From positions 19,761 to 83,760 of the forward strand of contig CAVUBL010000012.1 of assembly GCA_963739795.1 (NCBI GenBank): a stretch of DNA of 64,000 nt. The letters are read 5' to 3'. This document shows, piece by piece, positions 23,046 through 24,757 of the stretch (its first letter is position 1; every line of letters begins with the position of its first letter). Position numbers and translations under genes: made by a program. This DNA comes from an uncultured Acidobacteriota bacterium. Its GTDB lineage: Bacteria; Acidobacteriota; Thermoanaerobaculia; Multivoradales; DATKCC01. The notes beneath the pieces were generated by a model. That model was not told the origin of the DNA and searched no databases. It saw only the letters and a list, made by a program, of their open reading frames with translations.

Positions 23046-23156
23046 ACGGGACGGTCGCCGAGTCGACGTCCTCCTCGCCGCTGTCGCTTCGGGTCGAGTC
23101 TGCTGTCTTTGGCGCAAGCACCAAGCGCACGCATCATGATGTATCATCAACCCATC

Positions 23157-23387
23157 ATGCGGACGACGATCGACCTTCCCGACCACCTCCTCGTGGACGC
23201 CAAGAAGCTCGCTGCCGAACGGCATCTGCCGCTGACCCGGCTTCTCGAAGAGAGCCTCCGGGCCTATCTCAGCGAGGAGCGCCTTCGGCGGCGCGAGGAG
23301 CCCGCGCCTCTTCCGGTCCTCACCGAGCCGTCTCCCCTGCCGGGAGTCGATCTGGATGACACGAGCCGGCTCTGGGAGATGGAGTGA
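23157..23387 (+). CDS. vapB: VapB-type antitoxin (ribbon-helix-helix-like)
   Basis: MRTTIDLPDHLLVDAKKLAAERHLPLTRLLEESLRAYL. Its stop overlaps the vapC start (GTGA). A palindromic TGATGTATCATCA sits immediately upstream. Confidence 0.7.
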   Translation: MRTTIDLPDHLLVDAKKLAAERHLPLTRLLEESLRAYLSEERLRRREEPAPLPVLTEPSPLPGVDLDDTSRLWEME

Positions 23388-23812
23388 TCCTCTGTGACGT
23401 GGGCGTGCTGCTCCACGCCATGATCCGGAAGGCGGCGCATCACGACCTCTGTCGGCGCGAGCTCGATCGGCTGAGGTCGAATCCCCGGGAGCTGGCGGTG
23501 AGCGAGCTGGTCCTCGCGGCGGTGGTGCGCATCGGGACCAATCCGCGACTCTTCGAGCCGTGTCCCACGCCGGAAGAGGTCTTTGCGTTCGTGGAAGCGC
23601 TTCGGTCGCCGGCGCAGGTCCGGCGGATCTCCCCCGGCCCGCGACACTGGACGATCTTCAAGGATCTGGTTCTCACCAGCGGCATCCAAGGCCCGGACAC
23701 GACCGACGCCTACCTCGCCGCCCTCGCCATCGAGCACGACTGCGAATGGTGGACGACCGACTCGGACTTCAGCCGCTTCCCCGGCCTACGGTGGCGGAAC
23801 CTCCTCGCCTGA
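23384..23812 (+). CDS. vapC: PIN-domain toxin VapC
   Basis: [12 protein letters not shown] ... [29 protein letters not shown]: PIN acidic residues and a typical VapC C-terminus. Confidence 0.75.
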
Positions 23813-24040
23813 CAGTGGCCGTCCGCTCCCGAAGGCGCGCCAGAGATCGTACTGGAGCTGCTGGGCAAGCCAGCTCTCAGCCGTCGTGTCGAACGCGATC
23901 GAGAGGCGCACGGCCATCTCGGGGCTGACGCCTGCCCGGCCGTTGAGGATCCCGGAGAGCGTCTTCCGGCTGACACCCAGCGCCTTGGCCGCGTCGGTCA
24001 CGGTCAGCCCGAGGGGTTCCAGGCAGAGCGAGCGCAGCAC
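23786..24040 (-). CDS. HigA-like XRE-family HTH antitoxin/regulator. No HigB partner is present.
   Basis: [58 protein letters not shown] matches the HigA antidote family. Divergent from the PIN-RHH pair. Confidence 0.65.
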
Positions 24041-24116
24041 TTCGCCCGGGTGAGGAGAGTCGCGCGGCGCGACTTCGACTGCGAAGTGGCGCCGTATACG
24101 GTGCTATAGTGACGCA
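24041..24116. promoter_or_regulatory. Divergent intergenic region with the perfect palindrome CCGTATACGG and a TATAGT -10-like box; candidate shared operator
   Basis: gcgccgtatacggtgctatagtgacg, read directly between the HigA-like gene and the PIN gene. Confidence 0.4.
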
Positions 24117-24533
24117 GTGAGGCGAGCGGTGGTGGACACCAACGTGCTGATTGCCGGCTTGAGCCGGCGAGGTCCGGCTGGAGCTGTCATGGACGCATGG
24201 GTGACCCGCAGGTTCCAACCCTGCGTCTCCACAGCTCTCGCTCTCGAGTACGAAGACGTCATGCTCCGGAAGCTCGGTGCCGACCGGCGGCAGGCCGTGC
24301 CCATGGCACTTCAGGCGTTGCTAAGCCGCAGCGAATACGTCCCTGTCAGGTTCACCTACCGACCTGCCAGTCCCGATCCCGGAGACGATCTGGTGGTGGA
24401 TTGCGTCGTCAATTGTGGCGCGGTCCTCGTCACCGAGAACCAGAAGGACTTTCGGAGAGCCTCGCGGGAGTTTGGCTTTCGGATGCTGCAACCGTCCGAT
24501 TTCCTCGCGCTCTTGAAGGAGGAAGGCTCATGA
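24117..24533 (+). CDS. PIN-domain protein (toxin-first arrangement)
   Basis: GTG at 24117. AVVDTNVLIAGL...VVDCVVNCGAVLVTENQKDFRRAS has the PIN fold signature. Its stop overlaps the next start (ATGA). Confidence 0.7.
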   Translation: MRRAVVDTNVLIAGLSRRGPAGAVMDAWVTRRFQPCVSTALALEYEDVMLRKLGADRRQAVPMALQALLSRSEYVPVRFTYRPASPDPGDDLVVDCVVNCGAVLVTENQKDFRRASREFGFRMLQPSDFLALLKEEGS

Positions 24534-24757
24534 GCCGCATGACCGTTCGCCTACCGGACTCGCTCCATCGCCTTCTCGCCGAGCAGGCGTCGCGGGAGGG
24601 GATCTCGCTCAACCAGTACGTCGTCTACTCCCTCACCAGGTCGGTCACCGCCGCGGATCTGGAGAGCCAGCGCCAGACGTTCGAGGAGCTCAGGCGACGC
24701 TACCCGCCCGAGGAGGCCGAGGCAGCCCTCCGCGACCTCCTGGCCGTGCGCACTTGA
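24530..24757 (+). CDS. Ribbon-helix-helix (CopG/HicB-like) antitoxin downstream of the PIN gene
   Basis: MSRMTVRLPDSLHRLLAEQASREGISLNQYVVYSLT. Confidence 0.65.
   Translation: MSRMTVRLPDSLHRLLAEQASREGISLNQYVVYSLTRSVTAADLESQRQTFEELRRRYPPEEAEAALRDLLAVRT

Follow-up and report, generated by a model that had tools for sequence, protein, structure and literature searches.

The toxin-antitoxin island described here lies at positions 23109-24757 of the window, by which we mean the whole 64,000-nucleotide stretch of contig CAVUBL010000012.1 (assembly GCA_963739795.1) from an uncultured Acidobacteriota bacterium. It consists of a vapB-vapC pair, a HigA-like open reading frame (ORF) and a pair of genes in which a PIN_3 toxin gene precedes the gene of a ribbon-helix-helix (RHH) antitoxin. 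An initial annotation, made from the sequence alone, had described an island of this composition, and had suggested that the HigA-like protein, of the XRE type, might serve as a dedicated third component of the PIN-RHH pair. The ORF listing and a direct reading of the sequence agree with that first description in gene content, strands and overlaps, and profile searches together with the ORFs bear out that vapBC, the HigA-like ORF and PIN_3-RHH are all present. The canonical vapB-vapC pair has its GTGA overlap at 23384-23387, the HigA-like ORF on the minus strand converges on vapC and overlaps its 3' end by 27 bp, and the PIN-RHH operon is indeed toxin-first, with an ATGA overlap. The coordinates of the features are collected in Table 1. 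Taken together, the region is very probably a mosaic of three independent type II toxin-antitoxin units, in which higA is a remnant and PIN_3-RHH is an autonomous toxin-first module.

Table 1. Features of the toxin-antitoxin island, in window coordinates (aa, amino acids; bp, base pairs)
Feature	Position	Strand	Remarks
vapBC cassette	23119-23812	+	Taken as one mobile unit; begins 38 bp before vapB and ends with the vapC stop
vapB antitoxin gene	23157-23387	+	76 aa from ATG; the longest start, TTG 23109, gives 92 aa
vapC PIN-domain toxin gene	23384-23812	+	142 aa; GTG start within the GTGA overlap
ORF through the higA fragment	23786-24103	-	Public gene call from GTG 24040, 84 aa
higA core fragment	23834-24055	-	222 bp, 74 codons; sole part homologous to intact higA (blastn)
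Junction/spacer, higA fragment to PIN-RHH	24056-24087		32 bp with local inverted repeats
PIN_3-RHH cassette	24088-24757	+	Predicted promoter/operator and two genes
Putative palindromic operator CGCCGTATACGGTG (14 bp)	24090-24103		Family consensus CACCGTATACGGTG; CCGTATACGG (24092-24101) is its core
Predicted extended -10 element TGCTATAGT	24102-24110	+	TATAGT hexamer at 24105-24110
Third GryGyC-type box	24111-24116	+	GACGCA in the window; follows the -10 element and precedes the start codon
PIN_3 toxin gene	24117-24533	+	138 aa from GTG 24117; the alternative GTG 24129 is the 134-aa public call
RHH antitoxin gene, HicB C-terminal-domain type	24530-24757	+	75 aa; ATGA overlap 24530-24533

The product of the PIN gene matches PF13470 (PIN_3) with 64.8 bits (cutoff 27), and at least 90% of 27 homologues keep its residues D7, E44, D95 and D111. 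The AlphaFold2 (AF2) model of this protein has a pLDDT of 90.5, and its best fold matches in the PDB are PIN/VapC toxins, with a TM score of about 0.65 (Foldseek). The RHH product matches PF05534 with 39.2 bits (cutoff 21) and reaches 29.7 bits against NF041551, YlcI_YnfO_N (cutoff 30). Its AF2 model matches the RHH domains of Arc, CopG, KacA and VapB over the N-terminal ~40-50 residues, which are followed by two helices, and its homologues are about 75 aa long and invariant in the N-terminal RHH part. A sequence search of the PDB returned no close solved homologue for PIN or RHH, and no defence-system model of PADLOC was matched. PIN_3 (COG1569) is a recognised family of toxin-antitoxin toxins (PMC5499597), and the toxin-antitoxin network counts PIN and RHH among its principal hubs (PMC2701414). 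We infer that the PIN protein would be toxic as an RNase and would be neutralised by the C-terminal helices of RHH, whose translation may be coupled to that of PIN via the ATGA overlap.

To describe the surroundings of this pair in other genomes, PIN homologues were collected. There were 283 in the protein collection (E ≤ 0.001), the few named ones being from metagenome-assembled genomes (MAGs) of Thermoanaerobaculia, and 25 genome loci and 54 metagenome loci were fetched (these and other loci are numbered with the prefix L below). Among the 68 unique loci with enough downstream sequence, an RHH gene followed PIN on the same strand in 58 and lay on the opposite strand in four; it was absent from six, which are mostly distant or truncated matches. 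A hidden Markov model of the HigA family was run on 66 unique PIN-RHH loci, of which 58 include 300 bp or more upstream, and it detected no member among their 3867 ORFs (best E=0.34). By tblastn, HigA was found beside PIN only in L001, L002, L005 and L030, near-identical relatives of the window with a 20-aa remnant. The genes upstream of PIN are heterogeneous: a Pfam scan of 73 upstream ORFs of 55 loci yielded aldehyde dehydrogenase in four members and singletons such as TPR, DnaJ, subtilase, RNA ligase, SSB and Phd/YefM, and peptidases were also named. No helix-turn-helix (HTH) family was among the 25 of 38 upstream-neighbour Pfam families listed, the remainder having at most one member each, in scans whose greedy choice of ORFs could hide a short gene. 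Since RHH follows PIN in 58 of the 68 loci, HigA is missing from the 66 and the upstream genes vary, the pair appears to be autonomous. The edges of the DNA homology fall at the same unit: in comparisons with L003 (79% nucleotide (nt) identity) and L004 (72%), homology begins at 24087/24088 and ends at 24750-24759, at the RHH stop (blastn). Judged from these loci, PIN_3-RHH is a self-contained two-gene cassette. No further copy of the cassette or of its operator was found within the window.

The four loci with RHH on the opposite strand (L012, L014, L049 and L052; e.g., L014:2980-3650) have a convergent RHH gene immediately downstream of PIN with an overlap of about 4 bp, and the TGCTATAGT promoter is missing from them. 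In L014, PIN stands directly after an ORF that is DinB-like by eye (no tool match), with an aldehyde dehydrogenase gene upstream; the other three loci probably share this synteny, as aldehyde dehydrogenase (Aldedh) was found in four upstream ORFs. Inverted repeats flanking the inverted RHH, as in an invertible switch, were looked for in L012 and L014 and none were found. The inverted arrangement may represent a domesticated or rewired pair.

The region in front of PIN was compared in an alignment of 60 loci over the 110 bp that precede the gene, and a shared element was analysed in 36 of them, which belong to Acidobacteriota and to MAGs labelled Myxococcota or Deltaproteobacteria. The consensus of the 36 loci is tGACACC-gtATaC-GGTGCTATAGTG-ryGTC, followed by ATG or GTG. 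The TG of the extended -10 element is present in 32-36 of the 36 loci, the second-position A and the final T of the hexamer are found in every one, and the hexamer pattern TAnnnT is essentially invariant. The start codon follows exactly 6 nt past the hexamer in 31 loci. As for the palindrome of 14 bp, its outer arms CACC/GGTG are complementary in 32-33 loci, and its pair 14-23 covaries (C-G in 19 loci and T-A in 7), which was reached by 0.65% of shuffles. Two further boxes belong to the element, a left box GACACC, which reads GGCGCC at 24088-24093 in the window, and a third box with the consensus G-r-y-G-T-C, the inverse of the left box, directly before ATG/GTG. Neither the left nor the middle box covaried significantly with the right box, and so conservation is all that the three-box model rests on.

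By itself, the 10-bp palindrome is not significant, with about 0.9 matches per window expected at ≤1 mismatch, and we take it as real because it is conserved in homologous loci. This conservation bears out the palindromic operator and the -10 box that the initial annotation had seen in front of PIN. The 76-bp divergent region in which it had placed them stands only in part: CCGTATACGG and TATAGT are present, but some of the region is HigA homology, which continues to 24055. The remaining spacer at the junction shows no homology to higA loci or to other PIN-RHH loci and occurs in L001, L002 and L106 only; its inverted repeats lie at 24058-24065/24067-24074 and at 24065-24077/24082-24094.

Because the shared element is conserved where HigA is absent, the control region appears to be the PIN-RHH cassette's own. 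PIN-RHH would be transcribed from the extended -10 promoter TGCTATAGT. By analogy with other RHH antitoxins, the palindrome is most plausibly an RHH binding site, and RHH, alone or together with PIN, would repress transcription by binding at two places, this palindrome, which abuts the -10 element, and a related box that covers the start site. A start codon 6 nt after the hexamer is the geometry expected of a leaderless mRNA, suggesting that the PIN-RHH transcript is probably leaderless and starts at or beside the PIN start codon. We favour, with some reserve, the view that PIN_3-RHH cassettes constitute an uncharacterised, widely mobile, leaderless toxin-first family, with an operator GACACC-N6-GGTGCTATAGTG-GTGTC that lies within an extended -10 promoter and is conserved across phyla.

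Two groups of PIN-RHH loci have different 5' regions (L006, L007, L008, L010, L037, L040, L042 and L059 / L054, L058 and L082). One of these subgroups carries GGTGCTAGAATC, with TAGAAT as the -10 hexamer and no CACC..GGTG palindrome, and its start codon is still about 6 nt downstream. In the other, PIN comes directly after a codirectional gene ending LSLSHARELI(E/G)GAAKGRKG, and there is no promoter motif.

The HigA-like ORF (23786-24040) matches TIGR02607 with 98.8 bits (cutoff 47.7) over profile positions 3-78 of 81. The alignment begins at residue 15 of the 23786-24103 frame, upstream of GTG 24040, and the HigA homology, with its HPGE motif, extends to 24055, beyond the annotated start at GTG 24040. 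Upstream, the first stop in the frame is a TAG at 24104-24106, and between this stop and the HPGE motif the frame has no ATG, GTG or TTG. The public protein P0121, of 84 aa, is 99% identical to the ORF product. Database searches returned thousands of HigA relatives, the best of them 87-97% identical over the core at the amino acid level, and the intact ones are uniformly about 95 aa long and end with DLWRAEQKRGSLKVKRLTAA. In the protein alignment, the family N-terminus MKMHNP and the C-terminus EQKRGSLKVKRLTAA are replaced by unrelated sequence in the window, whose protein diverges completely before PHPGE and after DLWRA. The DNA gives the same boundaries. Four intact higA genes share homology with this locus only within 23834-24055 (89.6% nt identity to L084 2519-2740, where the gene spans 2501-2788; 84% to L085 and 80.5% to L096; blastn), and the fragment therefore lacks the last 16 codons of higA and its first 6, the start among them. 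As far as these alignments tell, the HigA-like gene has lost both its ends and is a fragment, not a complete HigA of about 95 aa; it is most likely a decaying remnant. At best, an N-terminally clipped protein of 84 aa would be made from GTG 24040. The 5' end of higA, with its start codon, promoter and operator, would have been replaced when PIN-RHH, with adjoining DNA, inserted into the divergent intergenic region upstream of it, and the 3' end would have been replaced at the vapBC junction.

In the relatives, a gene for HigB (PF05015) of 92-93 aa was found directly upstream of higA in 20 of the 20 places examined, and two of the closest HigA relatives are full-length solitary genes. No HigB or HigB remnant was detected anywhere in the window with three HigB proteins as queries (tblastn, best E=0.14), in agreement with the initial annotation, which had reported none. 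Intact relatives also have GTAAC..GTTAC palindromes upstream of higB or higA (L085, L087, L088, L096 and L098), such as GTAACCCGTGAAGGTACGGGTTAC just upstream of the start. These palindromes are unlike the PIN-RHH operator consensus CACCGTATACGGTG, and a search of the whole window for GTAAC-N0-16-GTTAC gave no occurrence. The 95-aa HigA subfamily (L084-L105) is itself unusually conserved (87-97% at the amino acid level) and sometimes solitary (L084 and L085), with named representatives in Thermoanaerobaculia, 'Deltaproteobacteria' and Pseudomonadota MAGs.

The vapBC pair is a cassette of its own. The vapC product matches TIGR00028 with 114.4 bits (cutoff 73.6) and PF01850 with 42.8 bits (cutoff 23.6). 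The N-terminus of VapB, MRTTIDLPDHLL, matches PF09957 (VapB_antitoxin) weakly (E=0.024, 15 bits, below the cutoff of 23.4), and a profile search gave no NCBIfam match for VapB. The vapBC block is 90.2% identical in nucleotides over 694 bp to L107 and L109, and the identity stops exactly at the vapC stop; in these two loci, the same pair of vapB (83 aa) and vapC (142 aa) stands alone beside RhuM/HsdM_N genes, and the pair is kept as a unit in L107-L111. Upstream of vapB, the motif CATCATG occurs twice at 23130-23157 together with the palindrome TGATG-TAT-CATCA, within the conserved left end of the cassette. From reading alone, these repeats and the palindrome are a plausible, putative VapB operator.

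Close relatives of the window suggest how the mosaic arose. L106, a near-identical contig of 9.5 kb, has the window's arrangement and is 100% identical to the window across 23813-24533 and upstream of vapB, but its vapBC is only 89-90% identical (L106:286-759). This comparison indicates allelic replacement at the level of the cassette, in which one toxin-antitoxin cassette would have been swapped by recombination between otherwise identical backgrounds. L001 and L002 are 94% identical to the window in nucleotides and lack window positions 23046-24007, i.e., vapBC and two-thirds of higA. In the segments that correspond to window positions 23046-24116 (L001:2582-2700 and L002:143-260), the stop of the SBP_bac_5 gene is followed by 8 bp and a frameshifted 5' remnant of higA. 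Then comes an intact PIN-RHH pair, which is kept at 97% and 96% amino acid identity with the same promoter. It is thus apparent from the alignment that the L001 and L002 lineages deleted vapBC and the 3' two-thirds of higA. Downstream of RHH, they differ from the window and carry an 82-aa ORF, a CopG_antitoxin-family protein and HicB_lk.

An older state may be seen in L084, where the neighbour of an intact higA, transcribed divergently from it, is a 76-aa ORF with DNA homology to window positions 25711-25987. Given this neighbour, window positions 24056-25710, which hold PIN-RHH and a 260-aa ORF, replace the 168 bp of intergenic DNA of L084 and the first 18 nt of higA, and the divergent arrangement of higA and PIN would be an accident of insertion. 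The three-unit mosaic would have been built by cassettes of about 0.7 kb that were inserted or recombined downstream of the SBP_bac_5 gene, in an order of events that we infer. Window positions 25711-26140 hold two overlapping small ORFs: one encodes about 76 aa and ends in ERVDLDEW, and the other begins with MSGKYLLDTNIAIRILN, which resembles a PIN N-terminus by eye. Neither of these small ORFs has a Pfam match, and the pair is 80% homologous in nucleotides to the divergent neighbour of the L084 higA (genes 2096-2326 and 1987-2106). The two are probably a further vapBC-like pair in decay and mark the ancestral neighbour of higA.

Several observations weigh against the reading of a decayed higA beside an autonomous PIN-RHH cassette with its own operator. 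The covariation in the palindrome is modest and clear in one arm pair only, and the operator in the window departs from the consensus at one position, with G for A at 24091. The window promoter has no recognisable -35 element, and a simple sigma-70 scan missed the -10 element because there was no -35 match in the window. The PIN protein reaches only 25.9 bits against TIGR00305, just below the cutoff of 29.15. The higA core is 95-97% identical in protein sequence to intact relatives and is the same in the window and L106, so that recent inactivation is indistinguishable from continued use of the 84-aa product.

The initial annotation had read the XRE/HigA-like gene, PIN_3 and RHH as a tripartite module, with the XRE protein acting as a dedicated regulator on a shared divergent palindrome. 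In its favour, the divergent genes adjoin each other with the palindrome between their annotated starts, and the arrangement is also found in L106 and, as a remnant, in L001 and L002. Toxin-antitoxin systems with separate regulators are known elsewhere, namely PaaR2-PaaA2-ParE2 and omega-epsilon-zeta, in which the three genes consistently co-occur and the regulator is intact. The similarity to these systems, an extra DNA-binding gene beside a toxin-antitoxin pair, is superficial, since the co-occurrence in the window is limited to one lineage of near-identical relatives and the putative regulator is truncated, cut at both ends and without a start codon for the full-length form. A HigA-family ORF was found in none of the 66 other unique loci and no HTH among the upstream families listed, whereas the operator is conserved without HigA. 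Moreover, L001 and L002 lost most of higA and kept PIN-RHH, and the GTAAC..GTTAC type of HigA-family operator is absent from the window. The comparative data thus appear to refute the tripartite model largely, and we consider it extremely improbable. It falls on this evidence and not on a HigB remnant, which the initial annotation had named beforehand as a finding that would tell against it. A related proposal is that the clipped HigA from GTG 24040, having lost its own operator, was co-opted to modulate the PIN-RHH promoter, making a lineage-specific, accidental three-component circuit. This is highly improbable as well, no observation speaks for it, and the more modest reading of a leaderless PIN_3-RHH family is much more likely.

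It could also be supposed that the 84-aa HTH protein from GTG 24040 functions as an orphan XRE regulator of another target, unrelated to PIN-RHH, since its ORF is intact from GTG 24040 to the stop at 23786 and is annotated publicly (P0121), its HTH core is 95-97% identical to intact HigA proteins, and full-length solitary HigA genes exist in relatives. However, no promoter-like site was found on the minus strand upstream of the fragment, and no obvious Shine-Dalgarno sequence was read before GTG 24040. The product excludes the conserved HPGE motif and has its conserved C-terminal 16 residues replaced, no operator of the native type occurs anywhere in the window, and the equivalent segment is frameshifted and decaying in L001 and L002. 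An orphan regulator is therefore unlikely. The PIN_3-RHH pair itself might be a domesticated nuclease and regulator with a housekeeping role, and no addiction or toxin-antitoxin module. Consistent with this, PADLOC matched no defence-system model, and the four loci in which PIN is fixed behind Aldedh-DinB-like genes with an inverted RHH suggest domestication in some lineages. On the other hand, the pair is patchily distributed among differing genomic neighbours, it behaves as a cassette that carries its own promoter, and its island also contains further toxin-antitoxin genes, an ISL3 transposase and an insertion that resembles a MITE. PIN_3 proteins are also treated as toxin-antitoxin toxins by family annotation and in the literature (PMC5499597). 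We regard domestication of the pair in the window as very unlikely, and retain the reading of an autonomous toxin-antitoxin module.

Among known systems, toxin-first (T-AT) PIN3-HicB pairs have been listed in Synechocystis sp. PCC 6803 (sll0624/sll0624a and slr5116/ssr5117; Kopfmann et al. 2016, PMC4963859). In these pairs, a PF13470 toxin precedes a HicB-family/PF05534 antitoxin, and it is by Pfam families and gene order that they are likened to the pair in the window. The same study reported leaderless toxin-antitoxin transcripts in this cyanobacterium, all with reversed gene order. However, the cyanobacterial pairs are predictions, their transcription start sites were mapped 281 and 571 nt upstream, so that they are not leaderless, and no operator was described. 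The PIN_3-RHH_6 modules of Tn3-family transposons (Lima-Mendez et al. 2020, PMC7157771) likewise combine PIN_3 with an RHH antitoxin in a compact mobile cassette beside regulatory DNA, but the antitoxin comes first, it belongs to RHH_6 (PF16762) and not to PF05534, and the modules lie inside transposons next to res sites. With VapBC/FitAB-type systems (FitAB 2bsq, Rickettsia VapBC2 3zvk and M. tuberculosis VapBC 5x3t), the pair shares the PIN fold (Foldseek TM 0.57-0.65), an RHH N-terminal domain with a C-terminal toxin-binding extension and a palindromic operator at the promoter, the latter being predicted in the window; the gene order is reversed, and the identity of PIN to solved PIN proteins is only 13-22%. 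As for HigBA (HigB PF05015 and HigA TIGR02607), the window ORF has an HTH core with 87-97% identity to the 95-aa HigA, but higB, the start codon and the GTAAC..GTTAC operator are all missing from the window and both termini are replaced, as in a fragment and not a module. Hence toxin-first PIN3-HicB pairs are already catalogued, and what is new here is probably the conserved, probably leaderless promoter/operator of a PIN_3-RHH cassette family. The PIN-RHH pair belongs to a known, though experimentally uncharacterised kind, vapBC is canonical, and higA is a remnant.

The DNA on both sides of the island was also inspected. Upstream, an insertion of 273 bp at 22032-22308 splits the SBP_bac_5 gene, which is intact in L001 (474 aa), into two ORFs at 21169-22059 and 22122-23045. 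The insertion is bounded by inverted repeats of about 24 bp (TAGGAGTCTGCGCGGCAGAAAC...GTTTCTGCCGCGCAGACTCCTA), and its sequence is self-complementary from end to end (69% over 288 bp). It resembles a MITE, and the window holds one copy of it. Downstream, a strong sigma-70-like site, TTGACA-17-TAAAGT (10 of 12 matches), stands directly after the RHH stop (window 24754-25563). The 260-aa ORF at 24781-25563 has no Pfam or PADLOC match, and parts of it resemble scattered segments of L084. Between 25600 and 31000, the GC content drops from about 70% to 52-60%. The gene of a 433-aa ISL3-family transposase lies at 27284-28585 on the minus strand, and its counterpart in L106 matches DDE_Tnp_ISL3; beyond it are two large unannotated ORFs at 28727-30445 and 30358-32262. 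Positions 25600-31000 were probably acquired horizontally, as a block that borders the toxin-antitoxin island. Scanning the window for Rfam families and tRNAs gave no hits.

These results bear on how such islands are read. An XRE gene that adjoins a toxin-antitoxin pair in an island is not to be taken as part of a tripartite system without comparative support, since here the third gene is the debris of nested cassette insertion; as noted above, the XRE/HigA protein that the initial annotation had proposed as a third component sharing the operator comes from a truncated gene. The locus also illustrates how toxin-antitoxin islands grow and decay. Growth is seen in sharp-edged cassettes of about 0.7 kb, running from promoter to stop codon, and in allelic cassette replacement between otherwise identical strains, and decay in the clipping of resident genes and in deletion in sister lineages. 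For the toxin-first PIN_3-RHH (HicB-type) family, which is experimentally uncharacterised, a conserved and well-defined putative promoter/operator is now available.

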